From Candidatus Latescibacterota bacterium (GTDB lineage Bacteria > Latescibacterota > UBA2968 > UBA8231), in NCBI GenBank assembly GCA_965215195.1, contig CBDCDC010000002.1:832001-896000 (forward strand): 64,000 nucleotides of DNA, given 5' to 3'. A program made the translations under genes and the position numbers. This document shows positions 2,834 through 34,786 of the stretch, piece after piece. Within the stretch, counting starts at the first letter, position 1. The number at the start of each line of letters is the position of its first letter. The notes beneath the pieces are model-generated. The model was not told where the DNA came from. It ran no database searches and was given only the letters and a program-made list of their open reading frames with translations.

Positions 2834-2843
2834 GACAACTCCT

Positions 2844-9332: not shown

Positions 9333-9360
9333 TTTAACATCCTGTTCCGCTGTAGAAACC

Positions 9361-17480: not shown

Positions 17481-18281
17481 ATGACCCCGGAACAGCGCTA
17501 TCTATTCGACATCAACGGCTATTTGCATCTCCCCGACGTGCTCAGCGATGGCGAACTAGCGGCCGCCCGAGCAGCCATAGCTCGCTATATGGCCACGCCC
17601 GACCACGAGCTGCCCGAGGGCTTTTCCCGCTCGGACGACGGCAAGTCCTACGCCAACGGCTTTGCTTTCGACAAGGTGCTCGAATCCCTGATCTTCCACC
17701 CGACCCTGTGGCCCATCATCAAAGAATTCACCCACGACCGGCCCGCTTTTAGCCGGGGAACCCTGTTGGTAGATAGCCATCGGCACGAGCCGCTGCGTCT
17801 GCACTGTGCCCGCGAGGACTTTGGCTGGCAAAGCACGCGCTACGACACCCGCGAGGACCGCATCTTCTGCGACGACTTCGTCATCTTCCCCTATTTTGAC
17901 GACGTCTTCCCGGGCGACGGCGGCTTGTTGGTGGTCCCAGGCTCGCACAAAGCGGCGTTTGCGCGACCGCCCAGCCTATTCAACGGCGGCGTCACCGCCC
18001 AGCTAAAGGATTTGCCCGTTGGGGTTGTCAATGTGACGCCGCGAGCCGGAGACGCCGTGGTAATGACGGAAATGCTGGCCCACGGAACGTTGCAATGGAA
18101 GCCCAAGGACCGCCTGCGCCGCACCCTAGTGTTGCGCTACCGACCCCAATTCAAGGGGCAAGCCGCGGTCCCAGAAGTCCTCTGCGATCGCTTGTCGCCG
18201 CAAACTATAGAGCTGATGGCCCCAGCTCACTACACCCATGTCAAGGAAGTCGTCAAGGAGGACGTGGTGCGGCTCACTTAA
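17481..18281 (+). CDS. Phytanoyl-CoA dioxygenase (PhyH) family protein
   Basis: MTPEQRYLFDINGYL, VVPGSHK, AGDAVV..LAHGT. Confidence 0.85.
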   Translation: MTPEQRYLFDINGYLHLPDVLSDGELAAARAAIARYMATPDHELPEGFSRSDDGKSYANGFAFDKVLESLIFHPTLWPIIKEFTHDRPAFSRGTLLVDSHRHEPLRLHCAREDFGWQSTRYDTREDRIFCDDFVIFPYFDDVFPGDGGLLVVPGSHKAAFARPPSLFNGGVTAQLKDLPVGVVNVTPRAGDAVVMTEMLAHGTLQWKPKDRLRRTLVLRYRPQFKGQAAVPEVLCDRLSPQTIELMAPAHYTHVKEVVKEDVVRLT

Positions 18282-18304
18282 ATCGAAATGCTGCAAAGCC
18301 AACC

Positions 18305-18342
18305 AAAACAGGCACCTGCGATGAGCGCAAGTGCCTGTTTTT
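18305..18342. terminator. Bidirectional intrinsic terminator
   Basis: AAAACAGGCAC..TGCG / CGCA..GTGCCTGTTTT hairpin between convergent phyH and tRNA-Lys. Confidence 0.75.
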
Positions 18343-18418
18343 TGGTGAGCCCACTGGGAATCGAACCCAGGACCTACGGATTAAAAGTCCGGTGCTCTAC
18401 CAGCTGAGCTATAGGCTC
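18343..18418 (-). tRNA. tRNA-Lys (UUU)
   Basis: GAGCCTATAGCTCAGCTGGTAGAGCACCGGACTTTTAATCCG...GGTTCGATTCC...GGGCTCACCA; 76 nt; encoded CCA. Confidence 0.97.
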
Positions 18419-18509
18419 TATCAGGGTTGTATTAAAAAAAAATACGCGGTTTGCGCATCCATTGCAAGGCTTCTACTGGAGACCGCGGCCTAGCGATCTG
18501 CCAATAAAC

Positions 18510-20780
18510 TCAGTAGGCCAAAGCGATGATTTTGGTCGTCCCCTGCGTCTGCGCATCGCCTTGCACTTCAACGCGTAAAATGTAGTTCCCCGGCGCGGCT
18601 AGCTGCCCGGATTCGGCCCGGCCATCCCAACTCAACGCTATCGGCCCGGCTATTTGCTGCTGGTCGTGCAGCACTCGGACTTTTCGTCCGCTCAGGTCGT
18701 AGAGTGCCACATGCAGCAAGCGGGGCTGGAGGACGTTCAACAGGGCGAACTCTATCCGCAGCCAATCGCCGATACCATCCCCGTTGGGGGTCACGAGTGC
18801 GGCCGACAACGCAAGCCCGTCGATCAAGGCCGGGCCGACTGGCAGCGACACGGCGATCGCGTCGCTGGCAACCGCGTCGCTGGCATCGCCCACATCCACC
18901 CGTTGCCTTATCTGTTGCTCTCCCCGGCCACTGGCCAAGAACGCCTCGAAAGGCATCTGTTGGCGGTATATCGTGCTGGCGAAGTCGAGCTCGATTAACC
19001 CGGCGCGGACGAATGGGTCGGCAAAGGCGATATCCAACCCACCATCCACTCGGATGACCTCCGCGTCCAATACCCGCCCCGCAGCGCGTATCTCGCCCAG
19101 CTCAATGTCTGCTCCTGAACGCATGAGCAACTGATCGAAACCCGTGCTGCCGGCCCCTGCATCCCAACCAAGATAATAGGTGAACTCGGTGCGCTGCCCT
19201 GGTTGGGCCTCGAGCGGGTCGATCTCGGCGCGCGTTGCCGCGGCCAAAGGCTCGTCGTAGCTGAGGACCAGCTCGTCGAGGATCGCTCCCTGCATGGGGT
19301 CGTCGCTGAGGAAATGGGCCTGCAATTGGACGAAACGCCGCGGCGTCGGCGAGAGAAACCCCCGCTCCGACCGCTCGTACGCTTGGCTCCAGATGCTCCA
19401 GTCCTCGCCGGGGGAACGCACGGTATCGATGCGGCCTTTGAAACTGGGTATGAGCTTGTTGTACTTCCTTTGGGTTACTTCCCTGCCGTTTTTGTCGTGG
19501 AAGACGTATAATTCCTGCAATAGATTGCCCGTCCGCGAGCGAATTTCTACGCGAGTCCCTTCCCAACTCAACGCCGTGGCATTGCGCACCGCCCCCAGAT
19601 CGTAGATCGGGGATTGCATGATGGTGCCGGCCGGATACCCCTCGCCAAAGACCTGAAATTCGGCTGTCGTGCCGGTGATGCAACACTGCCTGTTCGGATA
19701 GCGCATCCGCAGATAGCGCAGCGGCCGGAGCGAGAACTGCTCTTCAAAGTGGACGATATCGCGCAAGTTGCGGGGGTGTTCGGGCAATTCCCCCAAGACC
19801 TGCCAGCGCAGCGACCCGTCCGGTGCCAGCGATCCGTCCGACCCCCAGAGGATATACCAAGGGAAGTGGATGGCGTTGCGCCGGGTCCAGCGCCAGTCAA
19901 CGCTGCTCGGGGCGATGCCGGCCAGATCGCCCAAAATCCGCACCCGATCCACCCAGTACAGGGCCCCCAAATCAAAGGTGAATTCGGTGTCGCCCGGTTG
20001 GGAAAACCCCCAGTAGCGCCAACTCGACGCGATATCGCCGTCGATCAGGGCATTGCTATTGCCGGTTGACTCGTAGCCTTCGGCCCGCGTACCGATTTCG
20101 TTGAGGATATCGACCCGGCCGCCGCGTTCCCGCATCCCCAGCGAGATATTGTCCCCCACGGCCTCCACTGCAAGTGCGCTGATCCCGGCCCCGGCCGTGG
20201 GCAAATCTACTTGGATGCGGATGAATTGCAGCGGTTTAAGGCCGTATTCGATGACCAATTCCCGCTGCTGGTTAAAGCTGTAGCGGACGCGATCGCTATA
20301 GCGCACAGTACTCGGCAGGGGCAGGCCGGTCGAATCAAAAAAGCGCTCGCCATTGGACAGCAAGACCTGCAAAAACTCCAGCTGCGGCTCCCTGAGTTGC
20401 AAGACCACGCGCTGCGCGGAAACGACGCGGCCCAGATCGACCTCAACGTACATGTTCTCGGGATCGTCGTCCCAATCGGGTGCCCAGAAGCTGCCCAAGT
20501 TCCCATCGATCAGGTTGCCGGCAGCACCGCGGTTGGAGCCTGCGGCGCGGATGCCGCCGCCGAAATCCCCCGCATTGGCGACCGCGTCGATATCTCGCCG
20601 CACGAATCTGGGACCGGCTTTCCCACGGCTGATTTCGATTGCGTCGCCGGGCCGCTGCCACGCATTCCAATCCGCGCTGGTCCCGATCCGCAGTTTTTCG
20701 CCTGCCGCGGCTGAATATGCCATGCCGCAGAGCAGCACGGCCCAAAGGGCAGATCCCAACTGGCGTTGACTTTTCATCAC
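18510..20780 (-). CDS. Exported protein with discoidin-like domains and C-terminal FlgD Ig-like domain
   Basis: Signal peptide; LIDG..SFW and VDLG repeats; TPNGDGIGD..LYDLSGRKVR..WDGRAESG..PGNYI. Confidence 0.82.
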   Translation of the reverse strand: MMKSQRQLGSALWAVLLCGMAYSAAAGEKLRIGTSADWNAWQRPGDAIEISRGKAGPRFVRRDIDAVANAGDFGGGIRAAGSNRGAAGNLIDGNLGSFWAPDWDDDPENMYVEVDLGRVVSAQRVVLQLREPQLEFLQVLLSNGERFFDSTGLPLPSTVRYSDRVRYSFNQQRELVIEYGLKPLQFIRIQVDLPTAGAGISALAVEAVGDNISLGMRERGGRVDILNEIGTRAEGYESTGNSNALIDGDIASSWRYWGFSQPGDTEFTFDLGALYWVDRVRILGDLAGIAPSSVDWRWTRRNAIHFPWYILWGSDGSLAPDGSLRWQVLGELPEHPRNLRDIVHFEEQFSLRPLRYLRMRYPNRQCCITGTTAEFQVFGEGYPAGTIMQSPIYDLGAVRNATALSWEGTRVEIRSRTGNLLQELYVFHDKNGREVTQRKYNKLIPSFKGRIDTVRSPGEDWSIWSQAYERSERGFLSPTPRRFVQLQAHFLSDDPMQGAILDELVLSYDEPLAAATRAEIDPLEAQPGQRTEFTYYLGWDAGAGSTGFDQLLMRSGADIELGEIRAAGRVLDAEVIRVDGGLDIAFADPFVRAGLIELDFASTIYRQQMPFEAFLASGRGEQQIRQRVDVGDASDAVASDAIAVSLPVGPALIDGLALSAALVTPNGDGIGDWLRIEFALLNVLQPRLLHVALYDLSGRKVRVLHDQQQIAGPIALSWDGRAESGQLAAPGNYILRVEVQGDAQTQGTTKIIALAY

Positions 20781-23700
20781 GACGAGAGCTTAACGGAACG
20801 CGGCCTAGTCTTGCCCTCGCAAAAGTACAGGGCCTTGAATCGGTCCATTTGTTTGATTTTGTCGATCAATACTCGTTCCTGCTGCGAGCTCGACACATTC
20901 CGTACAAGCGACTTGGCATCCGCTTGGGTCAATCGCAAAACGAGATAGTTGGCGATGGCCGAAAATACCGAGACGTCGAAGTCCTTCGCCTCCTGCGAGG
21001 CAAGCACTAGCGAAATACCGTACTTCCGGCACTCTTTTGCCATGGTGGGAATGAGCTTTAACCCTGCGGCCCGGTGCGCCTCATCGAAAATCAAGGTGTG
21101 CGTAATTCGATCTTGGATGCCTCTGCGGAACATGTCCTTGTAGAGACCGTAAAACACCAACGACGCAAAAGCCCGCTGAAGGTTGTCATTCTGAGTCGTG
21201 TGAATCCGCATGACGGTCGGCTGCTCGCTCTCCCACAAGCTGCTGTGGGACTCGCGGAGATTGAAGAACCCGTAGTCTTCAAGTTCTTCCAACCGCGCAA
21301 GCAGCGTCCGCAACCCGCGGTCTGGTTTTGGATCGCCGCGCAGAATCTCGACGAAGCGATTGAACGGCGGTTCCTGCAAATCCGCGGCCGCCGCGTTGGC
21401 GTTTCCCCAGCCCAGCTCAACGAAGCTGTCCTTAATGGCTCCCCGAATGCGCTCGGCCTGAATGTCGCCGAGTTCCGGGTAGATCGCCGCGAAAATATCC
21501 CGCATCGCACCCGCCACGTCGAGATGCGCCATCCGAGATCCTCGATCAACCACCTCCAGCGGGTTGAAGCCCAAACCATCAAAATCGATGAACCGAACCG
21601 CCGACTGCCCAAGTCGCTCGTCAATGTCCTGATGATAGGAAAAGACGATCGGGCGAATACCGGCTGCCATCATCTGATTGCACAGGTTCAGCAGGCAGGT
21701 AGTCTTGCCCATACCGGGCAGCCCCGCTATCAGAAGGTGGGGGTTGCCCTGTACGGTCAGCGGCCATCGAACTTCTTCGTTGGTCGAGGGATCGGTGCCG
21801 AAACAGATCGAGGGTACAGCTTCCGTTTCTCCCCCGATGGCTTCTAGCTGGTCAACGGATATTGCTGGTGCCCCCCTTGCGGCGTCCTGCTTCGACGACA
21901 GCCGATCCTCCGCTTCAGGGGGGCTGGTGGTCATTTCACCGCGAAAATCCAAGTCCGGCAGCAGGTTAGGACCGCATAGGAATACCTGCGTACTCCGATT
22001 GTCCGGAGAAATTTTCAACGGACTCGCCCCGGCATACTCGGGGCAAAACACCCAGCCGCGGTCTCCGCTTTCGTCTGCGTCCAGCCTGTAGTCGCCGCCC
22101 TTTGCGATCATGCGGTCAAGATCGGCCACAAGCTCGGCATACCGCGCCGCCGGTAAATAGTGCCTACGCGCCTTGTCTGCATAGAAGCGCAGTACCCGGG
22201 CCAGCTTGGCCCGACGCACCGCTCTGAACGCTGAGCACACTTCATGTGCATACCAGTCGTTCCAACGCTTGCGCAGCACAGCGGTCTGTTCCCGAATGCG
22301 GCGCAAAAGGTCCGGGGACCTTGCAGCGCGTAGATCCCGACGGTACTTGACCTCGACGAAACGGAACATCAGTCCCTTTCTCGGTGCCGTGGTCACATAC
22401 ATCAAGTCCGGGCGCACCTCCTTCTCATCGCCGTCCTCGTCCATCAACGGCGGCAAGAGATCTCGAACATCATCGACGGGCACGATGAAACCGCGCTCCA
22501 GCGATACCCAGCATGGATCCGTCTCCTGCGCCTGCTGGCAATTGGCCTGCGAAACGGCGAGCGCGATCAACTCCGAAGTCGGCGGTTTGTCTCCAGTGAG
22601 GCGAATGGCGAGCCGGCCGCTGAGGGCCTTCAGATGCTCCAAGAGGAATTCCGCGTTGCGACGGCTGCGGCTGAGCCCCATCTGCTCCAAGGCACCATCA
22701 AGCAGGACGCGTACCTCCTCCAAATTGCTAGTAGAGGTAATTAGCTGTAAGCAGCCTAAGTCCTCCCGTTCTGGAACGCAGTCAATCACGTACGCATCGT
22801 AGATTGCCCGATTGTCCCGCGGGGAATCGAAGTACTCAATGCCGGCGTTCCGGTCCAGCGTGATAACCCAATCGCAAAGCCGGTGGAGCTTCTTGAGACC
22901 ATCCTCCTTTTCCCGCGAGACCGCTGTGTACAGCACTGGCAGCTTTCCATTCTCAGCACCAGCATGTCGCGCCACAGTGCCCTGTATGGCGCGTTGCAAG
23001 TCCTCCAAGCGTTTAGTATGGGCGCGGTCCGCCGGATGCCTTTCGCCATCTTTCGCCAGCGCGACCGTACTGCGCCATAGCGGCGAGGGCTTGGCGGCGA
23101 AGTCGCGCTGGTAGAACGAAAGCAGGCCAAACGCATGGAACGTCCCGTCGTTTGGCCTTTCTCGCTCGTCCGGCCTTACCTGCGACTCGAATGTGTCAAA
23201 CGCGACGGCAACGTGGGCTGCGGTCTTCGGGTCAAGCCCATTCTTGCGTGCCCAGCGCAACCTCGGCATGTTCACGCCGCCGGGCAGACTCACGGATTCG
23301 AGCATCCACTGATCGTCGGTTGACACCACCCCAGCACCACTGCGCCGCCGTTCCCGCGCCTCGGCAATGAACCGCCCGGCAATTCCGCGCTGTTCCTCAG
23401 AAGGATACATTTCCAGCGAGAAGACGGGTGCCTCGGAAGCACCCTCGTCATCGGCCCAGCGCAGGCGGTCGTGGACGAGGCCCAAAGACCGGGCAATAGT
23501 CAGACCATCTCCCGCCCGAAGGGCGTGAACGCGGAGTAGGGGGGACGTGTTGTGGCAGTCCAAGTACTTGACGATCTCGTCGCCGACCACCTCTGCGCTC
23601 TGTCCCCCTACCGTTGGGGCGGCGTCCATGGACTCACCCTCCCCCAGCGCACGGGCGAGAATCGCCACCGCCGCCTTGGGCTCCTTGTCCGTGTCCGGGA

Positions 23701-25699
23701 CCATGCCGACCGCATGAAAGCCGAGGGTATCCGCAAAGACAAACGATCCGCCGGTTCGATTCGGGAGAAAGGCCGGGAACATGGCACCGTCCAAGCACTG
23801 GAACTCGTCTCTTACGTCTTTTGCCTTTTGAGCCTGCTCGAAGGCCGCGTGGAAAACGAGATTGTCATACGCTGCATGCCATGCGACGCGCAACGGGTGC
23901 ATCGGCAGGACGATGAGGCCAATCATCCGCCCGGCAAGGGACCGCACCTCCACGGTGTTGCACAGGGCCAAAGATGGATCGCCGCTCTCCAACAATGCAG
24001 TCCAAGCGCGGAGGAACTCTTTAACCGAATCAAACGCTTTCGCCTTATCGTCATATACATGGCCCACCACCCCGCCATCCTTGTGGATGCGAGCCGCCAA
24101 TCTTCGGCTCGCCACGGTGGCTTTCTTCCATGTCTTCCCTCTACCCTCATGGCGAATGAACTCCACGTCTCCCGCTCGGGCACCGGACGCACGGACCTTG
24201 ACGCGCCAATACCCAATCGCTCCACCGCGCTCCATCCACTGCTTTTCCACGTCGCGGATCAGCGGCGGACAAGGCACGCGAAAACTCAACCGTTTTGTCT
24301 CTACGGATGTGCGCAACAGCACCAAGTTTCTCTTCTCATCAAAGCTGAAATTCGCCGAACTGTCGGCGATGGTGGACACGCTCTCCCGCTCATCGAGTTC
24401 GACCAAGCCCTCGCTAAACGCACGGACCTTGCGGCCCGCCCCGCCGGCGCTCTTTTCGGGTGGCTCGCCAAAGCGGATAATGAATTCCTCGCTCTCTTGC
24501 GGTTCGACCGCTTCGTTGCCCACCGCGGAAACCACCACTTTGGCGGAGACCAGAGAGTCCTCGTTTAGCGATGAGAAGTCGTCATTACTGAACCGGCACT
24601 TCTCCCCTCCTCTACGCGCCGAGTGACTCACGTCGCGCACGGCCAGCTCTTCGTCCGCACCGGCTACTACGGCAATGCGGTACTCCACCGCGTTCTTTTC
24701 TAAGTTGCCGGGCCGCACCTTCCAGCGGATCTCCAGATTCTTATAGTCAGCCGACGACGCAGCTTCGGGCTTCAGGATCAGAACCGGGGGTTGCTCATTC
24801 GCTTCTCCAGGGAATAGTCCAGCGGATTCCTCAACCAATCCCGACCACTTGGCGATTGCGCCGTTCCGGGTGCGCCAAGGCGTCAGTTCAATGGATTCGA
24901 TGTCATCGGCATTCTCTATCCGCAATTTACCGACCCACAGGTGCTTCTTGTCGGCCAGCGTCGCCAACGCCGACAGCAGCGGTTGGGTTTCTGCGGTATG
25001 CAGGAAAACTGCGAGATCGCGGCGTTGCTCGTCCGTCGGCTGCGAAAGCCGCAGCGACTCAATGCGCGCCGGGATGGTCTGCCCAGAAGCCGCCGTTCCC
25101 AGCAGGTGATCTACAAACCGGCGCGAGTCGTCTAAGGTACTCTCGTCTGTAATGGGCCACAGGCCGAGCAGGTGAAGATACGCGCCGGGATGCCGGTTGT
25201 GCGCCGCAATGCGGCAGAGGAAGTCGAACGCGGTCCATGGCGAAACGCTGTACTGACTGCCGAATCCCTGCGCCTTTTTGATGGCTTGCTCGGCATATTG
25301 GCGATGGGCACTCGACAATCGGCGCGTCACCTCAGCAGCAGCTCGTCGCTGAGCTTCCCTGAATAGGCTTGTCTCATCCACTTCCCGCGAGGCACTGTAG
25401 ATGCCGTCCATGCCGGCGCCGGCAAGCTGGGTATCCACCAGCAGCAAGAGGGCCTCGCCTTTGGCCTCGCGCATCTCGACAGCGCGGTCCGCGGTAATGG
25501 TCCGCAGGTTGGCATCGTCCGAATCCGCTACCTGCCGAACCTGCCAATTTTGTACGCAGAAGTTGTCGTCCGCAGCGAGCTTTGTCACCACATCTGGCGT
25601 CAGGCAGCGGGCGAAGGCCATGGCCCCGGGTTCGGCGCGGCCCAGCACCTTCTCAAACGCCCGCCCGAGTACTTGCCCATGTAGTTTGCTCCACTCCAT
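20777..25699 (-). CDS. MAD8/DndH-like protein: PD-(D/E)xK nuclease plus C-terminal HerA/FtsK ATPase
   Basis: RPDLMYV..FVEVKY nuclease motif; PHLLIAGLPGMGKT Walker A; LIFDEAHR Walker B; ECRKYGISLVLASQ; 1640 aa. Confidence 0.8.
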   Translation of the reverse strand: MEWSKLHGQVLGRAFEKVLGRAEPGAMAFARCLTPDVVTKLAADDNFCVQNWQVRQVADSDDANLRTITADRAVEMREAKGEALLLLVDTQLAGAGMDGIYSASREVDETSLFREAQRRAAAEVTRRLSSAHRQYAEQAIKKAQGFGSQYSVSPWTAFDFLCRIAAHNRHPGAYLHLLGLWPITDESTLDDSRRFVDHLLGTAASGQTIPARIESLRLSQPTDEQRRDLAVFLHTAETQPLLSALATLADKKHLWVGKLRIENADDIESIELTPWRTRNGAIAKWSGLVEESAGLFPGEANEQPPVLILKPEAASSADYKNLEIRWKVRPGNLEKNAVEYRIAVVAGADEELAVRDVSHSARRGGEKCRFSNDDFSSLNEDSLVSAKVVVSAVGNEAVEPQESEEFIIRFGEPPEKSAGGAGRKVRAFSEGLVELDERESVSTIADSSANFSFDEKRNLVLLRTSVETKRLSFRVPCPPLIRDVEKQWMERGGAIGYWRVKVRASGARAGDVEFIRHEGRGKTWKKATVASRRLAARIHKDGGVVGHVYDDKAKAFDSVKEFLRAWTALLESGDPSLALCNTVEVRSLAGRMIGLIVLPMHPLRVAWHAAYDNLVFHAAFEQAQKAKDVRDEFQCLDGAMFPAFLPNRTGGSFVFADTLGFHAVGMVPDTDKEPKAAVAILARALGEGESMDAAPTVGGQSAEVVGDEIVKYLDCHNTSPLLRVHALRAGDGLTIARSLGLVHDRLRWADDEGASEAPVFSLEMYPSEEQRGIAGRFIAEARERRRSGAGVVSTDDQWMLESVSLPGGVNMPRLRWARKNGLDPKTAAHVAVAFDTFESQVRPDERERPNDGTFHAFGLLSFYQRDFAAKPSPLWRSTVALAKDGERHPADRAHTKRLEDLQRAIQGTVARHAGAENGKLPVLYTAVSREKEDGLKKLHRLCDWVITLDRNAGIEYFDSPRDNRAIYDAYVIDCVPEREDLGCLQLITSTSNLEEVRVLLDGALEQMGLSRSRRNAEFLLEHLKALSGRLAIRLTGDKPPTSELIALAVSQANCQQAQETDPCWVSLERGFIVPVDDVRDLLPPLMDEDGDEKEVRPDLMYVTTAPRKGLMFRFVEVKYRRDLRAARSPDLLRRIREQTAVLRKRWNDWYAHEVCSAFRAVRRAKLARVLRFYADKARRHYLPAARYAELVADLDRMIAKGGDYRLDADESGDRGWVFCPEYAGASPLKISPDNRSTQVFLCGPNLLPDLDFRGEMTTSPPEAEDRLSSKQDAARGAPAISVDQLEAIGGETEAVPSICFGTDPSTNEEVRWPLTVQGNPHLLIAGLPGMGKTTCLLNLCNQMMAAGIRPIVFSYHQDIDERLGQSAVRFIDFDGLGFNPLEVVDRGSRMAHLDVAGAMRDIFAAIYPELGDIQAERIRGAIKDSFVELGWGNANAAAADLQEPPFNRFVEILRGDPKPDRGLRTLLARLEELEDYGFFNLRESHSSLWESEQPTVMRIHTTQNDNLQRAFASLVFYGLYKDMFRRGIQDRITHTLIFDEAHRAAGLKLIPTMAKECRKYGISLVLASQEAKDFDVSVFSAIANYLVLRLTQADAKSLVRNVSSSQQERVLIDKIKQMDRFKALYFCEGKTRPRSVKLSS

Positions 25700-25700
25700 A

Positions 25701-27506
25701 TCAGTTCTCCATCGCCAGCTTGAAGCGAGGTTCCAACCGCTTCATGGCTTCTGCATCGTTGACGCCCACCAAAAGCCCTAAGTCGCGCAGCCGCCGCTCC
25801 AGAATCGTGCGATTCCTTTGCAGCAATTCGTTGGAGATCGTCATTCCCTCCGGGGCAGTATCCACGTGGAATCCATAGCGTTCGCGTAACACTTCGAGAA
25901 ATTCCCTGAACGAGAGGGGGCGGACGCCCGGTTTGTTGCCGCTTTTCAACAAGTGAAGATGCACCAGATAGTCCAGCACCGAATCAGTGAACACGAGGGA
26001 ACGAACGTCGCGTTTCCGGCGCGTTGTGCTGGCGCCTAGACCGCGCGTCGTCGTCCGCCTAGCCGCCAGCCCGTTCGGTCGCCCGGTGAGCAAGCTCGAG
26101 TCAATCATCGACATGAAATTGCTACGAGGCTTCCACCCCATTAGCACCATCAAGCCATCGGCAAGCCGCCAGACCGGGTTTTCTTGGCTGGTATCGTTAT
26201 CCAGAATTTCCGCGGCCTCGGGGTAGCCATCCGCTAGTCCCTCGGCCAGTTTGTCGGCATCGTCTTCTATCCTGTCCAAAATTCTTCGTGCTTGCGGATG
26301 GCGGTCGTGCAGCAAGCCCCCCAATAGATTCAGCCAATCCGTGGCATAAGGTCGGGTAGCAATATCCTCCTTTTTGATTCTTTTATTGTCCCGCGCCCGA
26401 TAGTCCAATAGCCGCAATACCATTAAAAGGACGGGAAAACGCTCCATACGCCGCATGTAGTCGTCCATTGACTGCTCGGCCGCATCCCGAATGCTTCGCT
26501 CAACCCCATTAGAGCAATCCATGAACAAAGGGGCGGGCCGCTGTTCTTCGCGAGCTGGGACAGTGCCGGTCTCCGACCACCGCAACAACAGCTCGACTGC
26601 GCTGGTAAGAATAGTCGTCAGACCTATGGCAATACACGATTCCAGCATCTCTACTAAAGCGTGTCGTGGCATCGGGACTGCATACGAACGCACGAAGCGG
26701 CGAATATCATCGGAGAAATTCCGCGCCGCTTCCTCTGCTATGGGGCGTTGATTGGAGATGGGACCTGCTTCCTTGCCCCGCATCTTGTCGGGTGCCCTAC
26801 CAATCTGCTGAGCGAGTCGGATCATCAACAGTTGGTCCAAGCCAACGGTTTCGTCTTCCTCCTTGAACCGATCCGATGCCAAGTCACTCGAGACCGCTCC
26901 CTCGCGGGTAACGCCTTGGCTGAAGCCATTCAACAAAACGTTCTCCTCGTACTTATTCCCCACAGGAAACCACGTTAGCTTTTTATTTTCGCTCTGTCCG
27001 ACATATTCGCCCTTCTGATCGGCCAGCATGGCAACGATCATTTCGGGAACGTAGCGAAGATCCGACACAGATTGTGGAAGATCTATCCAAGTCGCCATGT
27101 AATGGGCTGGCGCGACCCGCTGGATTTGCTGGTCGCGACCGAGATTGTGCTTGGTATTTTCGAGACAGAAACAGAGTAGTAGATCGCCGAGGATGGACTT
27201 CTCGGTTTCCTCGTCGAAACCATCAAACTCTGCCTTGCCGGACAGTGTCTCCGTGACGCGCTCAATGGTCGCCGATCTCCTTATTTGACTAGGCGAGCTA
27301 TTTTTATCGCCGAAGGTCTTTAGAAAATTTCCACCACCTCTGCGTTGACCAAAGCGGAACATATAAAAAACTGCCGGAAGGACTGCGGAAAGTTCAAACC
27401 CATCAATCGAGACTGGCAGTACTTTGTGATAATTACCCGACCATATTTCTCGGGTCATACCGGGGGACAACACTTCTTCGACGAGTTTGCGGGCATTATC
27501 GGCCAT
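25701..27506 (-). CDS. MAD7/DndG-like protein
   Basis: 601 aa between the kinase-ATPase and HerA genes; C-terminal FLEVLRERYG..LERRLRDLGLLVGVNDA resembles the DndG/MAD7 tail. Confidence 0.65.
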   Translation of the reverse strand: MADNARKLVEEVLSPGMTREIWSGNYHKVLPVSIDGFELSAVLPAVFYMFRFGQRRGGGNFLKTFGDKNSSPSQIRRSATIERVTETLSGKAEFDGFDEETEKSILGDLLLCFCLENTKHNLGRDQQIQRVAPAHYMATWIDLPQSVSDLRYVPEMIVAMLADQKGEYVGQSENKKLTWFPVGNKYEENVLLNGFSQGVTREGAVSSDLASDRFKEEDETVGLDQLLMIRLAQQIGRAPDKMRGKEAGPISNQRPIAEEAARNFSDDIRRFVRSYAVPMPRHALVEMLESCIAIGLTTILTSAVELLLRWSETGTVPAREEQRPAPLFMDCSNGVERSIRDAAEQSMDDYMRRMERFPVLLMVLRLLDYRARDNKRIKKEDIATRPYATDWLNLLGGLLHDRHPQARRILDRIEDDADKLAEGLADGYPEAAEILDNDTSQENPVWRLADGLMVLMGWKPRSNFMSMIDSSLLTGRPNGLAARRTTTRGLGASTTRRKRDVRSLVFTDSVLDYLVHLHLLKSGNKPGVRPLSFREFLEVLRERYGFHVDTAPEGMTISNELLQRNRTILERRLRDLGLLVGVNDAEAMKRLEPRFKLAMEN

Positions 27507-30500
27507 TTGTTATCTCCTCCAGTCGCCGAATGATCATCTGTTGCTGAACGCCAGCATCGGCCCCTTCGACGATCTCCGCAGCAACCTCGTAGGTCGCCTC
27601 GTCCTGCATTGGATTCCAAGCCAGCACCGTGCGATCATCCTCGCGCACCAACCGCTGCACAAAGATCGACAAGTGAGCAAAGGTGTCGTCGGTCGAAACA
27701 TCGCCCAACTGATAGCCTTCACTCAGTTCCAAAAGCAGGTGAAACAGATCGGCACCGAGGCGGAGCCGCTCTTCGCCCCCATCCCGATAGCGGTAGATTA
27801 GAAGGGCTTGGCGATGCAGCCGGTCGAGTCCTTCGGCTTCGGCTGGCAGATCAGGTTCAAGCCGAAAGTTGCTCAGTGGCTTCTCCACCCAGAACGCGGT
27901 TTCCGTCGGCGTCCGCGGCGTGATGCGTAGCGGGACCACATCAGGGCGGTCAAGTGCTTGCGGCGGCAGACTTTCCAAGCGCGCAATCCCCTCGCACAGC
28001 CTGCGGCAAAGATCGTCGCGATCACCTTCGGCGATTGGGAGATTGCTGAACTCCCGATAATGCCGCGCTTGGGCCAAGCCGAGGGCGTGAGCATCGCCGA
28101 CAAGCTCATTGAGGTCGTCTGCGGTCCATTCAAAGTAGGCCCGCCGCCGCGCTTCTTTTAGCGTCAACCCCGGATAGTGGGGTGCCCCTTTAGAGGTATC
28201 AACAGAGGGGGTTCGCAGCAGGTGCCGATCAATCTGCGGATGGGCTTCGAGGGCCGGATCAAAGCGAATTAGCTCTTGCAAGACTTCGCCCTGTCGTCCC
28301 GACGACTCCGGCGCAAAGGCGCGTTCCCAATAGGGCAACGGAGCGTCCGCACCGTTGTGATAGTCGCTACAGAAGTGGACGCCGAACAGGATATAGACCA
28401 GTGCGGCCCGCAGCTCGCGGACCGTGATGTGAGTTTCGCCGCGCAGGTGAACGGCTTGCAACATCTCAAACAGCCGCTGCCGAGCGCGTGTACGCTCATC
28501 TTGCGGGGCCATGCCGGGAAGCCCTTGGGGGCCAAATCGCCGCATGGCGCGGCGGACCTCGCAGCGATCTTGGGCCGAACACGTCTCGCAAGGTGCCCAA
28601 TGCTGGGCGGCCTTCTTCCGGCCGTAGAGGCTGTCTAGCAAATCCTCGAGAAAGCCGGTTTCAATGTGCGATTCGCTCGGCACCACGCTTCCAACAAGCG
28701 ACCGTTGATTGAGGCTGATGAAGCGGATGTGTGATTCGGGGGCGGCTTCCTCTCTGTCGAGCAAGCCGTAGAGAGCCTGTGTCAACGGCGTTTCACTTTC
28801 GACTCTCTCAATCCACTCCAAAAGACGCCCATCGTTGATCGCCAGCAGATGGACGATGGCCTCGTCGGGCACGCCCTGTTGAAACGGCTCCAAGAATTCA
28901 TCCAAAAGCTCATCGGCAGAACGTCCCTGCCACGCCGCCGACCCATCGAGATTCATGCGGACGATCAGGCCATCCTCCATCCGATTCTCCAGAATGCGCT
29001 CTGAGGAATTGTGTATGCCAAACCCAAGACGACCGGCAAGGTGCTGGAGCAACGCGGTTTTCCCGTCGCCGGCGTTGCCACACAGGATGACGAGCCGAAC
29101 TTTTCGACGCAGAATGTCGCCATACAGTGCATCTTCGAGCTTGGTTTCAACGTAGGTTTGCGCGGCGAAGTCCGTGTCGAGGCCTCGGGTTTCGCTGTTT
29201 CCCCAGCGAGAGCCGGGGTAGGATTGCAGCAAGAATTGCAGCCAAGGCACTTCGTTCTCACGACGAACAGGAGGTTCCGCTGGTGGCTCGGATTCATCGG
29301 CACTTTCGGCCTCAGTGGCCGCGGGTGGACTCAAAGCAGCCTTTGCTTCGGCCGCAGACGCAAATCGCTGCACCGGGTCGGGATTCGTCGCCTGATCCAG
29401 AAATGCGGCAACGGTCGGGTACGCCGTGCGCTCGACGCCATCCCAATTCAAGCCGCGTTCCTTGGCCCGGCTGCCGTCGTACATAAACGGCTCTTTCTCG
29501 AAAAGCACCTGAAAGAAGCTGGCGGCCAACGCGAAGAAGTCGTCCGCAGGAGCGGCCGGGCGGTCTTTGAGATGAGTATGCGAGCTATACATGACGGTGC
29601 CGGGAGCGGCGACCGGCTCATCGAGCTTGGCTACACAGTCGTAGTCCGTCAAAACAATATCGCCGTTGGCAACGATCATGTTGCGCGGGCTGACGTCGCC
29701 ATGCACCAAGCCGTTGCCATGCAGAACGTCCAACGCAGCGCAAACCGCGTACAGCCAACGCAAAGCTAGTGCTTCCCCGGACTCTTCGTGGAAGTCTTCA
29801 GCAAGGATCGGGAGGACGCCGGCAAGTTCGCTCAAGGGTTCGCCTTCGATCCACCGCATCAATGCAACAAAGCAGTTGTCGCGCCACTCGTCCGCCGTTT
29901 CAAATATGGTCGAAAGCGCGGCCGAATCAGCGAGGTGCGAATGCGCCAAGTTGTACGCCCGCAGAACTCGCTCGCCGGTTCTTTTGTCCCCCACAACCTT
30001 GGCGACGTAGGCACCGAGATCCCCGCCGGTCGCGCCATCGATCCGCACCACCTTGAACGTGGTTCCGACCCCTCCCGAACCGAGACGCGAAACGATCCGG
30101 TAATCCCGGCCGCGAAATTTCACAACCTGATCTTCGGTCCAGAATCGGGCCGGTGGCGCAACGACAGCCGGCGGTTCGCCCAGCAGGGCCGACAATGAGT
30201 CGCGGAGTTTTTCCAATGTAGCTCGCTCCGCCCGATCGTCCGCCTTACCCTCGGCCAGCACCATGCTAGCCTCGTCTCGTTCCGCGAACAGCACGGACAG
30301 ACTGGCGCACAACGAATACACATCGGACTGACGATCCGCCGCCCCAAGGCCCTGTTTGCGAATCTCGGGGGCCACCGCAACGTCCCACTCGTCTTCTTCT
30401 ACCTCGGAGACCGCCACCGTGACGTCTGCGGGAATCCGGGCGTACTGGAGACCCGTCAAGATCGGCGTGTTGTCATGTCTGACGAGAATCGTGCCCGGCG

Positions 30501-31470
30501 TGAGGTTCCGGTGCAGCATGGGTTCGTCGCCCTCGCCCGCTTCGTGCAACTCTGTCAATGCTTCTACTGCTTGCCGAGCAAAGGCTAGTCGCGCCTTCGC
30601 ATCCCACGTATCGTCAGCGGCGCGTTGCGCGAGGCTAGGGGCCGCCGGGTCTGCGACCGTGAAGAACCACATCTCGCCAGCGTATCCCGGTGCCTCTTGA
30701 AATGAATCGACAATGCGCGGTGCCCAAGCTCGAAGTTGCAGCCGGTGCAGTGCGCCAAATTCCCGCCGCGCCCGGTCCTCTGGATTCGGCCGATCGATCG
30801 CCGACACGTCGCAAAGGTGCAGGAGCACGCGATCCCGCCGCTTAGAATGCGTACCCTTGTAGATTCGATGAAGCCGCTCGGCCGCCGGCGTCTGAAGTTC
30901 CAGATTGACATAGCCGGCCAATCGTCTCAGCGCACCGTCCATAACCACGCTGGCCTTTGGGTACAGAGCCTTGCCCAGCATCTTGACCTGCGACGGCGAT
31001 AGAGACGCCGGCGCATTTAGTGCCAAGGCACTTTGCCAAGTTTTCAACGTGTGGAAGCGAACGCCGCGGACTTCCCGCTCCTCAAGAGGCTTGACTTTCG
31101 CCGCATCCTGCGTGACCAAAAATACCCCATCCACCCGGCCGAGATCCGAGATCTTCTGGCGCAAGGTGGTGCCGACCTTGCGCGCCTTGTTCGTTACGCG
31201 CTCGGCTTCGCGTTCCACAAGTTCGGTATTCTGCTTCACCCAAGTCGCGTTCCAGTGTTTGACCTCAATGACCCGAACTCCAGGCGGGCCGATGGCGACA
31301 ATGTCGATTTCATCTGATTGGCGTCGATGAGTGGTGGAAAACGCGAGGTTGGTCAGCAGCAACCACTCGCCATCGCCCAACTCGGAAATCAAGCCCGTCT
31401 TGAGCCGCTCAAAGGCCCGCCGCTCGCTCTCGTTGACGGCCGGACCACAGCTAATAAGGGTAACTTTCAT
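27496..31470 (-). CDS. MAD6-like protein: NERD nuclease, pseudokinase, Ser/Thr kinase, DndF-like P-loop ATPase
   Basis: EIDIVAIGPPGVRVIEVKHW (NERD); HRNLTPGTILV; LGSGGVG..VAKV..HGDVSPRN..TDYD; LCGNAGDGKT; AINDGRL; CETC..C. Confidence 0.82.
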   Translation of the reverse strand: MKVTLISCGPAVNESERRAFERLKTGLISELGDGEWLLLTNLAFSTTHRRQSDEIDIVAIGPPGVRVIEVKHWNATWVKQNTELVEREAERVTNKARKVGTTLRQKISDLGRVDGVFLVTQDAAKVKPLEEREVRGVRFHTLKTWQSALALNAPASLSPSQVKMLGKALYPKASVVMDGALRRLAGYVNLELQTPAAERLHRIYKGTHSKRRDRVLLHLCDVSAIDRPNPEDRARREFGALHRLQLRAWAPRIVDSFQEAPGYAGEMWFFTVADPAAPSLAQRAADDTWDAKARLAFARQAVEALTELHEAGEGDEPMLHRNLTPGTILVRHDNTPILTGLQYARIPADVTVAVSEVEEDEWDVAVAPEIRKQGLGAADRQSDVYSLCASLSVLFAERDEASMVLAEGKADDRAERATLEKLRDSLSALLGEPPAVVAPPARFWTEDQVVKFRGRDYRIVSRLGSGGVGTTFKVVRIDGATGGDLGAYVAKVVGDKRTGERVLRAYNLAHSHLADSAALSTIFETADEWRDNCFVALMRWIEGEPLSELAGVLPILAEDFHEESGEALALRWLYAVCAALDVLHGNGLVHGDVSPRNMIVANGDIVLTDYDCVAKLDEPVAAPGTVMYSSHTHLKDRPAAPADDFFALAASFFQVLFEKEPFMYDGSRAKERGLNWDGVERTAYPTVAAFLDQATNPDPVQRFASAAEAKAALSPPAATEAESADESEPPAEPPVRRENEVPWLQFLLQSYPGSRWGNSETRGLDTDFAAQTYVETKLEDALYGDILRRKVRLVILCGNAGDGKTALLQHLAGRLGFGIHNSSERILENRMEDGLIVRMNLDGSAAWQGRSADELLDEFLEPFQQGVPDEAIVHLLAINDGRLLEWIERVESETPLTQALYGLLDREEAAPESHIRFISLNQRSLVGSVVPSESHIETGFLEDLLDSLYGRKKAAQHWAPCETCSAQDRCEVRRAMRRFGPQGLPGMAPQDERTRARQRLFEMLQAVHLRGETHITVRELRAALVYILFGVHFCSDYHNGADAPLPYWERAFAPESSGRQGEVLQELIRFDPALEAHPQIDRHLLRTPSVDTSKGAPHYPGLTLKEARRRAYFEWTADDLNELVGDAHALGLAQARHYREFSNLPIAEGDRDDLCRRLCEGIARLESLPPQALDRPDVVPLRITPRTPTETAFWVEKPLSNFRLEPDLPAEAEGLDRLHRQALLIYRYRDGGEERLRLGADLFHLLLELSEGYQLGDVSTDDTFAHLSIFVQRLVREDDRTVLAWNPMQDEATYEVAAEIVEGADAGVQQQMIIRRLEEITNGR

Positions 31471-31515
31471 CGGTCGTCGCCTTCCATGAGCACTTAAAAA
31501 AACGCTATCTGTTCC

Positions 31516-32526
31516 CTACCCCACGCGATACTTCTCCACGGCCTCCACATCCAGCTCAACGCCCAGCCCGGGCGCGTCCGGCACGGCCACGAAGCCATCA
31601 ACCGGCGTCAGCGCACCGCCGATTAGGTCGTTCTCGCGGGTAAAGTGCAGGCTGTCCGAGGGAATGGTCGCATTGGGAACGGTCGCGTGGACGTGCGTGC
31701 CATAGGCCCCGGACACGCCCAGCCCCAACCCCACGACCTGCAACCAGACCGGCATCCCGGCCGCCGCAGCCATGCCAGCGCAGATCTGTACGCGCTCGAC
31801 ATGGCCGCCCAGATTGAAGCAATCGGCCGCCTCGGCGCGGATCGCGCTCAGCACCATCTGGGGATCGCCTAAATGGGGCGCGAGCCGGATGCGGGTGTGG
31901 CGGCGAAAGTCGCGGTACTGGTGCCAGCCCGGCAAGTACTGGAAAGGATCCTCAAATGCCTCAATGTGATACGGCTCTAATGACTCGGCCAGCCGCAGGC
32001 TCGTGCTCAAATCGCCGAAGGTGAAATTCGGATCGACGATGATGCCGTAGTCCGGGCCGGCCGCTTGGGTCATCAGCTCAACGGTCTCGACGATGTTCCA
32101 AGGCCGCGCCTTGAGCTTGTGGGTCTTGAACCCGCGCTTGGCCCCTTCCTCGGCCATGGCGGCGAATTCGCGCGGCTCCAGCGGCGGCGACCACCAGCCC
32201 ACCGGCACCCGGTCCCAGTGCTTGGAGCCCATGAGCCGCCAAGCCGGCACCCCGAGGGCCTTGCCGACGATGTCGTACAGGGCCATGATCATGGCCCCGC
32301 CCTTGTCGCCCAAATTGACCTGCATGGGATTGACCCCGAGCCACTCGGCCTCCAAGCTGGCCAGCGAGCCGCCGCGCCCGCCTTCGCCCACGCCGCAGAT
32401 ACCCTCATCGGTATGCACTTTGATCAGGCTGATGGGCTGTTCCAAGTAATGGCCGGGGCGACTTTTTTCAATGGCGGGGATATGCGGCACCGCGGTGACG
32501 AACTCTTCGATCTGGGTGATTTTCAC
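31516..32526 (-). CDS. Mandelate racemase/muconate lactonizing enzyme family protein
   Basis: GTG start after GGGAGG; MALYDIVGKALGVP, HKLK, VDPN, FEDP, PGLGVELD. Confidence 0.88.
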   Translation of the reverse strand: MKITQIEEFVTAVPHIPAIEKSRPGHYLEQPISLIKVHTDEGICGVGEGGRGGSLASLEAEWLGVNPMQVNLGDKGGAMIMALYDIVGKALGVPAWRLMGSKHWDRVPVGWWSPPLEPREFAAMAEEGAKRGFKTHKLKARPWNIVETVELMTQAAGPDYGIIVDPNFTFGDLSTSLRLAESLEPYHIEAFEDPFQYLPGWHQYRDFRRHTRIRLAPHLGDPQMVLSAIRAEAADCFNLGGHVERVQICAGMAAAAGMPVWLQVVGLGLGVSGAYGTHVHATVPNATIPSDSLHFTRENDLIGGALTPVDGFVAVPDAPGLGVELDVEAVEKYRVG

Positions 32527-32528
32527 GA

Positions 32529-33762: not shown

Positions 33763-34221
33763 TCAAGCATTGCATGGCTCTTCACCTTGAGCCGTCATGG
33801 ACGCATTACCGTCATCGGGCAAATCCAAGAGCCTTTTGATCGCGGCGACCACAAAGTTCGCATCCTGCGCCGCCTGCCGTGCATCTTCTCTAGTGTACTT
33901 GTGCTCCAAATAAAACGCCGGTGCCCGAGCCTGCGCTAGCCATAGGGAAATCTCTTCGATTCGGTCTAGTTCCTGAGTATCTGCGGATTCCCGCTTCTGC
34001 CGGAATTGCTCGGAAAACACCGGGGCAACATCGTGTACTTTGGGATAATCTACACCCAGCACTTTTAGGCCCCCCTTTAGGGCAAGCTCGACGACTTCCT
34101 GAGATCGCCGCACGGCCAGATTGGAGTCCTCTTCTTGCAGGGCACCTTGAACATCGCGCAGGTAGATGCGTTCACCTTCGGCGATTAGCTGCTTGCCAGT
34201 CGCTTGGAGGCTGTCCTTCAT
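33763..34221 (-). CDS. HEPN domain protein (COG2250-like)
   Basis: AVRRSQEVVELALKG..YPKVHDV..RAPAFY; ATGA overlap with the MNT gene. Confidence 0.85.
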   Translation of the reverse strand: MKDSLQATGKQLIAEGERIYLRDVQGALQEEDSNLAVRRSQEVVELALKGGLKVLGVDYPKVHDVAPVFSEQFRQKRESADTQELDRIEEISLWLAQARAPAFYLEHKYTREDARQAAQDANFVVAAIKRLLDLPDDGNASMTAQGEEPCNA

Positions 34222-34745: not shown

Positions 34746-34786
34746 GGCTTGCCTCCTGAAGTTAGGTTGGTGCATCTATTTGCTGC

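Follow-up and report, generated by a model that had tools for sequence, protein, structure and literature searches.

The window analysed here is a 64,000-nucleotide (nt) stretch of DNA from a Candidatus Latescibacterota bacterium (positions 832,001 to 896,000 of contig CBDCDC010000002.1, assembly GCA_965215195.1), whose genome assembly consists of 2 contigs with a total of 6.13 Mb and is 95.2% complete. It carries, at 20777-31470 on the minus strand, a trio of intact co-directional genes of approx. 10.7 kb related to the F, G and H subunits of the MADS, Dnd and Ssp defence systems. Gene 1 (27496-31470, 1324 aa) encodes the F-type subunit (MAD6/DndF/SspF-like), gene 2 (25701-27506, 601 aa) the G-type subunit (MAD7/DndG fold, presumed DNA-binding), and gene 3 (20777-25699, 1640 aa) the H-type subunit (MAD8/DndH-like). 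Genes 1 and 2 share 11 bp and a single bp separates genes 2 and 3; the open reading frames (ORFs) are exactly those that a preliminary description of this DNA had reported as tightly coupled and intact. The G+C content across the region is unremarkable.

Upstream of the trio, an MR/MLE enolase-family gene ends at 31516, leaving between its stop codon and the start of gene 1 the 45-bp leader (31471-31515, minus strand) already measured in that description. The leader features a purine run, GGAAGG, approx. 12 nt before the gene 1 ATG, which is a possible ribosome-binding site, and its sequence is common only to close relatives. At the other end, the gene 3 stop codon overlaps the start of the next gene, whose 756-aa product is secreted and combines F5/8 type C (discoidin) domains with a type IX secretion tail. 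A scan of 18000-33000 for sigma-70-like promoters returned no site against 3.8 expected from shuffled sequences, a result that is uninformative for Latescibacterota.

Subunit architecture and kinship with named systems

From its motifs and family matches, gene 1 is predicted to encode a NERD nuclease, a pseudokinase, an active Ser/Thr kinase and a P-loop nucleotide-kinase-like core with a Cys-containing lid, an order that had been proposed from the sequence and is borne out by Pfam, PADLOC, the HRN motif and Walker A. The NERD (PD-(D/E)xK) domain lies at aa 13-87 (31210-31434, minus strand as for all domains below; Pfam PF08378, 7.4e-10), and is followed by the pseudokinase region at approx. 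aa 190-440 (30151-30903), in which HRN replaces HRD around aa 320 and which falls within an NCBIfam MADS6 match at aa 5-400. The Ser/Thr kinase domain (approx. aa 457-735; 29266-30102) matches Pfam Pkinase at 3.9e-16 (aa 457-668), with PknA and PknB as its best solved relatives in the PDB. The DndF/SspF-type core (approx. aa 770-1324; 27499-29163) comprises the Walker A motif GNAGDGKT at aa 798, an ND motif, a Cys pair and a C-terminal domain, and matches PADLOC SspF at 3.7e-14 (aa 773-1031); gene 1 also matches PADLOC mad6 at 3.3e-17. Across 57 members of the gene 1 family, D56, E69 and K71 of the NERD domain and G798, G803, K804, T805, N879, D880, C961 and C964 of the core are kept in all, and K491, D592, N597, D609 and D611 of the kinase in 55 each, while position 322 of the pseudokinase is N in 53 and D in none. 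These core motifs match those given for DndF in PMC10853773, where it is a P-loop kinase with Walker A, ND at strand 2 and a large lid that may carry a Zn-binding insert: at the level of sequence motifs, the protein has the canonical Walker A, the ND motif, the lid cysteines (C961/C964) and the SspF hidden Markov model (HMM) match.

Gene 2 has no match in the local Pfam copy, but falls in the MAD7 family by PADLOC (mad7 3e-15; SspG 1e-4, more precisely 9.8e-5) and NCBIfam MADS7 matches and by PF26611, which is named MAD7 in the protein atlas and is precomputed on all 120 listed homologues; the protein described at first as of unknown function, in the mad7 position, thereby gains a family. An AlphaFold (AF2) model built on a 58-sequence alignment (pLDDT 84.9, pTM 0.88) gave a sole Foldseek match in the PDB at E<=1e-3, namely 7exx, "The structure of DndG" (E 1.2e-5, prob 1.00, TM 0.54 on target), and sequence searches of the PDB gave no match. 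The model thus assigns gene 2 the DndG fold. DndG is defined in PMC10853773 as a triple winged-helix protein.

Gene 3 contains, from N- to C-terminus, an alpha/beta and helical part, beta-sandwiches (one at aa 268-414 of the model, Z 8.6), a methyltransferase fold, a PD-(D/E)xK motif region and a HerA/FtsK ATPase. PMC10853773 describes the DndH core as a SWI2/SNF2-like N-terminal domain, a helix-turn-helix (HTH), two beta-sandwiches, a target recognition domain (TRD), an inactive DNA adenine methylase (DAM) domain with a nested TRD, a restriction endonuclease domain and a captured HerA/FtsK domain, and the beta-sandwich, methyltransferase-fold, motif and HerA parts of gene 3 follow the same order. 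The ATPase domain (approx. aa 1292-1640; 20780-21826) is detected by the PADLOC DndH (3.3e-21), mad8 (5e-16) and HerA models, with matches confined to approx. aa 1292-1638 and those to DndH to aa 1292-1634, and in the PDB by HerA chains and DptH 7es4 (E 0.001); K1332, D1539, E1540 and Q1569 are kept in 59/59 gene 3 sequences. Assignment of the restriction-endonuclease-like region (approx. aa 1060-1200; 22100-22522) as a putative nuclease rests on the conserved motif PD(1097-1098)...E1116-V-K1118 and on homology to MAD8, to whose canonical form the region aligns, rather than on an HMM; D1098 and E1116 are each present in 56 and K1118 in 55 of the 59 sequences. The PD-(D/E)xK nuclease-HerA architecture first put forward for this protein is supported on these grounds.

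The class I S-adenosylmethionine (SAM)-methyltransferase-fold domain (approx. aa 670-1000; 22700-23692) emerged from structural alignment of a model of aa 1-1200 (pLDDT 79.1), the best VIA-align match having a Z of 12.2 (2eg5_E, root-mean-square deviation (rmsd) 3.6, 189 aligned) and the DNA adenine methylase M.BseCI a Z of 9.4 (7qw8_A, rmsd 3.0, 156 aligned). A PDB search with the N-terminal profile of gene 3 gave no match, one with the single sequence gave matches via the C-terminal ATPase only, and a Foldseek search with the whole model returned just weak Brr2 rows (TM approx. 0.1); a BpuSI-type or other type IIG chain was not listed, which carries little weight as the model was searched whole. 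This fold raises the question of whether the trio marks its host's DNA by itself, in the manner of a very large type IIG/ISP enzyme complex. The glycine loop is indeed conserved (G730 and D731 invariant, G732 at least 90%), as is D835-T836-F837 after strand 828-834, so that some activity of the domain is possible. Nevertheless, the catalytic motif [DNS]PP[YFW] occurs in 0/59 members of the gene 3 family, the equivalent DndH domain is judged inactive in PMC10853773, and canonical MADS needs a separate mad2 methylase although MAD8 has the same region. The domain is therefore probably non-catalytic, and built-in marking appears improbable.

The canonical MADS layout is represented by a Piscinibacter plasmid, with genes for an HTH protein, an N6 methylase, an AAA ATPase, two hypothetical proteins, a kinase and two further hypothetical proteins. 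Gene 1 aligns with the Piscinibacter kinase protein by BLASTP (6e-47 for aa 457-1283, 1e-10 for aa 5-395), with HRN in both; the gene 2 profile matches Piscinibacter MAD7 at 98.3% in hhalign, and the profile of the first 1200 aa of gene 3 matches the 1858-aa MAD8 at 99.7% (E 6.6e-26, aa 469-1188). Together with the Foldseek DndG match and the PADLOC and NCBIfam results, these alignments bear out the relatedness to mad6-mad7-mad8 and DndFGH suggested at the outset. Identity to the canonical MADS operon is only approx. 23-29%, however, and the NCBIfam equivalog cut-offs are missed by far, gene 1 scoring 167.4 bits against 460 for MADS6 and gene 2 scoring 151.2 bits against 410 for MADS7. By sequence, the trio is thus placed in the MAD6-8/DndFGH/SspFGH class, but not as a MADS equivalog. 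Its three genes do correspond to the mandatory MADS set, i.e. mad6, mad7 and mad8 homologues in one operon, as only MAD6-8 are mandatory in the MacSyFinder detection model of the MADS authors (bioRxiv 10.1101/2023.03.30.534895).

Compared with MADS of Pseudomonas aeruginosa SMC4386, the trio has the same gene order, tight coupling and fused NERD-pseudokinase-kinase, but its locus lacks the HTH regulator, the N6 methylase (mad2), the HsdS gene (mad5) and the MAD3/MAD4 OLD-like ATPase-Toprim nuclease pair. In P. aeruginosa, mad2-4 and mad6-8 are reported as required for defence (bioRxiv 10.1101/2023.03.30.534895), and MAD3/MAD4 and MAD7/MAD8 are described as two non-redundant ATPase modules (PMC13662399). 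With DndFGH (DptFGH; Salmonella enterica Cerro 87/Escherichia coli B7A) and SspFGH it shares the subunit logic, the DndG fold, a HerA-type ATPase and the SspF-like P-loop core, whereas its F subunit has extra NERD and kinase domains, its genome has no phosphorothioate genes, sequence similarity is weak, and DndH models reach the C-terminus of gene 3 only; the SspF and SspG matches have no counterpart in an SspH model match. The N-terminal arrangement of NERD, pseudokinase and active kinase is identical to that of PglW of type 2 BREX/Pgl (PMC12839542), and a Rhizobium orthologue of gene 1 matches PADLOC PglW at 4.8e-17. Unlike PglW, gene 1 has a DndF-type P-loop kinase as its C-terminal half instead of the PglW sensor half, and PglX-, PglY- or PglZ-like genes were not found among the scanned ORFs flanking the trio.

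The closest published description is that of stand-alone DndFGH with a NERD-pseudokinase-kinase DndF, with which the F, G and H parts agree and from which, as the system is outlined in PMC10853773 and PMC12839542, no essential difference is apparent. DndFGH is presented in PMC10853773 as commonly decoupled from modification genes, with DndF variants that carry winged HTH and NERD domains, along with S/T/Y kinase domains of both inactive and active type, a point repeated in PMC12839542, where the fusion is likened to PglW. PMC10853773 counts 5228 taxa in total, 1798 of them with DndFGH components and 4287 with modification genes; by our arithmetic (4287 + 1798 - 5228), 857 taxa share both, and approx. 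941 of the 1798 DndFGH taxa seem to be without modification genes. The novelty attached to this locus in the preliminary description was therefore overstated, although the observation itself was correct. Both the architecture and the decoupling are already in print. The stand-alone reading of the trio is well supported, and the present comparison widens it to an entire conserved clade. The account of stand-alone DndFGH given in PMC10853773 is computational, and literature searches found no bench test of a stand-alone NERD-kinase trio.

Insertion, transfer and conservation of the cassette

Seven of the 31 genomes of the genus carry the trio. In other genomes, eleven loci with a close orthologue of the discoidin gene were examined. 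Seven of these are empty sites, in which the enolase stop codon is followed by approx. 30 bp and the discoidin start (G001, G003, G006, G009, G010, G011 and G044), and two are occupied (G018 and G043), with the 45-bp leader in common; two others (G013, locus L117, and G041, locus L125) have partial enolase matches beside the discoidin orthologue and stand outside the count of empty sites. Because the site is empty in seven genomes of the same genus, the trio is a clean 10.7-kb insertion between the enolase-family and discoidin genes. A chance frame of 8 codons in the leader, GTG..VLMEGDDR..TGA, which overlaps the ATG of gene 1, is present as first reported, when it was taken as a weak trace of a deleted upstream gene. 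Such an origin is ruled out by the empty sites, with their spacer of approx. 30 bp, and by the limited occurrence of the peptide, which recurs with 1-2 substitutions only in two close relatives with similar DNA there. The ATGA start context itself is found in 55/66 relatives because codon 2 mostly begins with A.

The right border retains more of its history. In G018 (L040, 16650-16860) the ancestral spacer is kept after approx. 115 extra bases, which are missing from the window and were apparently lost there via an ATGAA microhomology; such a deletion explains the overlap between the gene 3 stop and the discoidin start (20774-20780). Remnants of the enolase 3′ end are found at this border, 24 codons long in G043 (L035, 16806-16877), where a copy of enolase residues 436-459 directly follows gene 3, and approx. 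17 nt long in G018; moreover, a contig of approx. 92% identity from run X5 joins the end of gene 3 to enolase-tail-like sequence. These remnants hint at integration by recombination in the 3′ end of the enolase gene, followed in the window by the microhomology deletion. An integrase, insertion sequence (IS) or terminal repeats were not found at the cassette ends in the window. Misassembly, a concern raised at the outset, is unlikely since contigs of other runs bridge both the left (X1, record 5) and the right (X6, record 26) junction. In run X2, a 10,770-nt contig without differences (20748-31517) covers exactly the trio, with loose ends at 20777 and 31488, and word depth is 13.4 over the trio against 37-45 in the flanks, which hints that the cassette is present in just a part of the population sampled.

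The relatives of the trio extend far beyond this phylum. Of 8000 database candidates scored for the query protein P0002, 1318 are homologues at E<=1e-3, and a pattern scan with one genome per species returned 208 genomes with a relative, from which the best 80 loci were kept. These have identities of 53-86% over the best matched segment and span 12 phylum-level groups, among them Latescibacterota, Acidobacteriota, Binatota, Chloroflexota, Planctomycetota, Pseudomonadota, Spirochaetota, Verrucomicrobiota and Gemmatimonadota. Genes 1, 2 and 3 are matched in the same order and on the same strand in 80/80 loci, some of which are cut by contig ends. In a gene 2 tree built from 76 sequences, the Latescibacterota copies group in a single clade with a support of 100, and phylum labels require 23 changes against a minimum of 11. 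The cassette was thus acquired horizontally and has moved between phyla. On a shorter time scale, the near-identical trios of G018 (L040) and G032 (L041), with gene 2 branch lengths of 0.044 and 0.039, belong to genomes of different families and sit in different contexts, the G032 copy having IS elements, an N6 methylase on the opposite strand and OLD-like/DUF4276 genes at its sides; a recent transfer is indicated.

The trio may also be viewed as a decaying relic, i.e. a MADS or Dnd system that has lost its modification half, in keeping with the lack of a modification module and with broken or shortened copies in some genomes of the genus. The copy in the window is intact, however, catalytic residues are near-invariant among 57-59 relatives, and the ratio of nonsynonymous to synonymous substitution rates (dN/dS) relative to four Latescibacterota copies is 0.116-0.261 in nine pairwise comparisons, a set without two pairs whose aligned stretch contains a stop codon and without one split match. 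The relaxed selection and missing catalytic residues expected of a relic are therefore not seen: the trio of the window is under purifying selection and is not a relic. Retention of the three-gene unit in all 80 loci from 12 phylum-level groups, and an empty site that leaves no room for lost genes, already contradict decay for the clade as a whole, and we regard it as scarcely credible. Conservation in 40-aa windows ranges from 0.40 to 0.91 and is lowest in the linker that precedes the HerA domain; these windows show no hypervariable block such as specificity domains have.

Modification partners and the basis of self-discrimination

Pfam and PADLOC scans of the neighbouring genes reveal no methylase, HsdS gene, OLD-like pair or regulator at the trio locus, in agreement with syntenic relatives, so that the absence of a linked self-marking module noted at first holds for the locus and its relatives alike. 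Elsewhere in the genome, DndC (TIGR03183) has no match, the best score for DndD is 25.6 bits against a cut-off of 245.9, and DndE (PF08870) and DUF4007/SspB have no match either, although these last two blanks are weak because neither search gave matches in any control genome. An assembled mad1-5 operon was not found anywhere in the genome, and hence neither a dnd/ssp nor a mad1-5 cluster, as envisaged at the outset, is found apart from the trio. The mad2, mad3 and mad5 models match many generic methylases, ABC-type ATPases and HsdS genes, and the mad2 and mad3 family searches are unspecific, being positive in all 14 control genomes. The sole mad4-like match (E 2.3e-5) is located at C2:4805304, beside an AAA_21 gene and approx. 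3.9 Mb from the trio; this OLD-like pair lies in a cluster with a SIR2/Dsr1-like gene, with no methylase within the 14 kb examined.

The same picture emerges from the 80 loci. Clustering of 589 flanking ORFs of at least 100 aa produced a largest cluster present in 6/80 loci, at varying positions, and seed searches with 13 methylase, 4 HsdS/mad5 and 2 mad3/mad4 sequences, of limited sensitivity, retrieved 17 ORFs in 14 loci with scattered position and strand. Neighbours could be evaluated upstream in 63 loci and downstream in 64, and were co-directional within 200 bp in 22 and 26 of them, respectively. By Pfam, 3/48 such close neighbours are DNA methylases: an HsdM that follows gene 3 in L068, an N6/N4 fragment of 189 aa in L075 and, preceding gene 1 in L110, the HsdM of an entire HsdR-HsdS-HsdM system. 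At least one of the three is part of a complete type I system. No fourth gene recurs with the trio, and the comparison of homologous neighbourhoods thus leaves it as the only constant unit. Two Rhizobium plasmids with the trio (39-43% identity) likewise have no methylase or HsdS gene upstream.

The main rival to a self-contained system is a restriction module licensed in trans, in which an unlinked host methylase (orphan or type I M/S) marks the chromosome and H/G spare marked DNA. It draws on the fact that the canonical relatives are all marked, by m6A in MADS (PMC13662399; bioRxiv 10.1101/2023.03.30.534895) and by phosphorothioate in Dnd/Ssp (PMC11662687), that the genome has many methylase-like matches, and that gene 3 has, in its methyltransferase-fold domain, a potential reader of a modified base. 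Moreover, three distant plasmid relatives (<30% identity) all have an N6 methylase and an HsdS gene directly upstream. Seven genome loci with HsdM or HsdS-like genes were examined; at least two are complete type I systems, and two consist of HsdM/HsdS pairs without HsdR in the 18-kb stretches examined (C1:849343-853653 and C1:571968-575154).

Licensing by the two methylase genes that do lie in the window, as reported, of N6/N4 type within 8716-10362 and of C5 type at 37461-38582, had been put forward as one explanation. It was assessed by co-occurrence in the 31 genomes of the genus, i.e. 7 trio carriers and 24 non-carriers, for four methylases. The catalytic part of the N6/N4 enzyme is found in 3/7 carriers and 3/24 non-carriers and the C5 orthologue in 3/7 and 1/24, counts that do not sustain the proposal, and the HsdM of locus C1:57x in 3/7 and 11/24. 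None of the four is common to all seven carriers, and each is also counted as occurring in non-carriers (for the HsdM of locus C1:85x, at an identity of at least 80%, the counts are 2/7 and 0/24). In G005, a complete single-contig genome with an intact trio, none of the four is intact, and just a 103-aa C5 fragment is found upstream of the trio. These four methylases therefore do not track the trio among relatives. The C5 methylase adjoins a GIY-YIG gene, and looks like a member of a type II pair of its own. Further arguments against licensing in trans are that the cassette has crossed phyla yet no partner gene travels along, that the trio has no hypervariable specificity segment, and that a newly arrived, unlicensed nuclease would kill each new host. 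On balance we consider such licensing unlikely, at perhaps one chance in four by our own judgement.

Instead, we favour the reading that the trio is probably a self-contained defence cassette of DndFGH-type translocating nuclease, with self-control exerted by its own kinase and nucleotide sensor rather than by a linked mark. By analogy with the characterised DndFGH complex, which has a 2:2:1 stoichiometry and performs translocation-coupled nicking (PMC11662687), the three products would assemble on DNA. The G subunit, with its predicted DndG fold, would bind DNA, and the H subunit would translocate by means of its HerA/FtsK ATPase and nick or cut by means of the PD-(D/E)xK domain, its degenerate methyltransferase-fold domain serving perhaps as a DNA reader or blocker and not as a writer. 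The F subunit would act as sensor and regulator: its P-loop kinase-like core may bind a nucleotide, its fused Ser/Thr kinase, beside the pseudokinase, may switch the complex by phosphorylation, and its NERD nuclease could be a second effector, possibly a suicidal one. Phosphorylation by a phage kinase is reported to inhibit nicking by DndFGH (PMC12345140), and in the two distant plasmid relatives from Bacteroidota a PP2C phosphatase gene directly follows the H gene. As no dedicated modification partner exists in the clade, the choice between self and non-self most likely does not depend on a linked epigenetic mark; infection signals (nucleotides, invader proteins or the state of DNA) that pass through the kinase are the likelier basis. 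It is tempting to go further and to propose an autonomous, mark-free immunity in which the kinase restrains the nuclease and releases it, or the NERD domain, when infection is sensed by the P-loop core, with the methyltransferase domain of H reading bases; in this fuller form the scheme is tentative, and somewhat more likely wrong than right.

Several observations weigh against the preferred reading of a self-controlled cassette. If the phosphorothioate mark is absent, canonical DndFGH damages the host that carries it (PMC11662687), so that an unmarked stand-alone relative needs a safeguard. The co-occurrence analysis covered only four of the many methylases of the genome, to which the HsdM/HsdS pairs without HsdR belong. 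Approx. 11/80 loci have some DNA methylase inside a flank of approx. 5-6 kb, and on one of the two Rhizobium plasmids two methylase genes lie directly downstream of the trio. Three of the seven copies in the genus (G022, G043 and G046) are altered, which could mean that the cassette is costly. The conserved glycine loop of gene 3 and the distance of genes 1 and 2 from the MADS equivalogs, both described above, belong here as well.

How stand-alone modules tell self from invader is the question for which this clade offers a clean test case, with three genes only, no recurring partner among 80 loci and proteins of unusually high conservation, at 55-88% identity between phyla. The built-in kinase could be the missing safeguard against self-damage; if so, a mark-free clade that has spread between phyla would show how this class of nuclease avoids self-damage without modification. 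The trio is in this respect a compact and well-conserved candidate for a first bench test of a published prediction. In annotation, labels such as "hypothetical" and "ATP-binding protein" may give way to that of a defence cassette.

Neighbouring genes and variant loci

A small defence neighbourhood lies 2.3-7 kb upstream of the trio, with two enolase-family genes in between. It consists of a pair of HEPN and nucleotidyltransferase genes (33763-34775) and the pair of GIY-YIG and C5 methylase genes (36796-38582). The surroundings bear on whether the trio serves immunity at all, and not mobile-element competition, plasmid exclusion, repair or a selfish addiction-type module. HerA/FtsK ATPases also serve segregation and conjugation (PMC10853773), and the patchy distribution (7/31 genus genomes), the transfer between phyla and the genes altered in 3/7 genus copies would suit such roles. 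Against this, every characterised relative is a defence system, as far as the accounts in bioRxiv 10.1101/2023.03.30.534895 and PMC11662687 extend, two defence gene pairs lie within 7 kb, the copy on the other Rhizobium plasmid is found among SIR2, S8-peptidase and IS genes and a type ISP enzyme, and the cassette contains no mobility genes. A non-immune role is accordingly very improbable in our view.

On the downstream side, the discoidin/type IX secretion gene (18510-20780) belongs to a very large paralogue family, for which each of the 31 genomes of the genus gave approx. 20-37 matches at E<=1e-30. Just past it is a tRNA gene (18346-18418, minus strand; Rfam 73.8 bits), 2.3 kb from the cassette and not at the junction. 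The ORF at 8716-10362 contains a real N6/N4 methylase of approx. 330 aa (approx. aa 216-548; PADLOC MTase_II 2.4e-145), present in 6/31 genus genomes. For the first approx. 205 codons, other genomes offer only matches interrupted by TAG stops, and the N-terminal extension is probably non-coding in the annotated frame.

The two HsdM/HsdS loci without HsdR are of mixed composition. At C1:849343-853653 (L027, C1:844695-853653), HsdM and HsdS precede genes for a 1520-aa PDC-M54A-like protein and for an AAA_15/PD-T4-4-like ATPase, and at C1:571968-575154 (L028, C1:569946-575154) an HTH-fused HsdM and HsdS are followed by TIR and SLOG genes. Among the distant relatives, MADS variants of Bacteroidota on plasmids of Chondrinema (L126, 1103-16336) and Bacteroides finegoldii (L127, 2834-18251) comprise an N6 methylase, HsdS, a kinase, a hypothetical protein, an ATPase and a PP2C phosphatase, without the MAD3/MAD4 pair; the pairing of kinase and phosphatase suggests a phospho-switch.

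Among the altered copies in the genus, gene 1 of G022 (L036, 5993-10005) is frame-broken after approx. aa 400-450, gene 1 of G043 (L035, 8191-10011) is reduced to a DndF core of 606 aa that lacks NERD and kinases, and gene 2 of G046 (C13:1016633-1018397) is split over two frames; a sequencing error is possible in each case. In two loci from Bryobacterales (L076 and L083), gene 3 ends at approx. 1270 aa, with the HerA/FtsK domain outside that ORF, and a 364-aa ORF comes next in L076, so that the H subunit may be split in these lineages.

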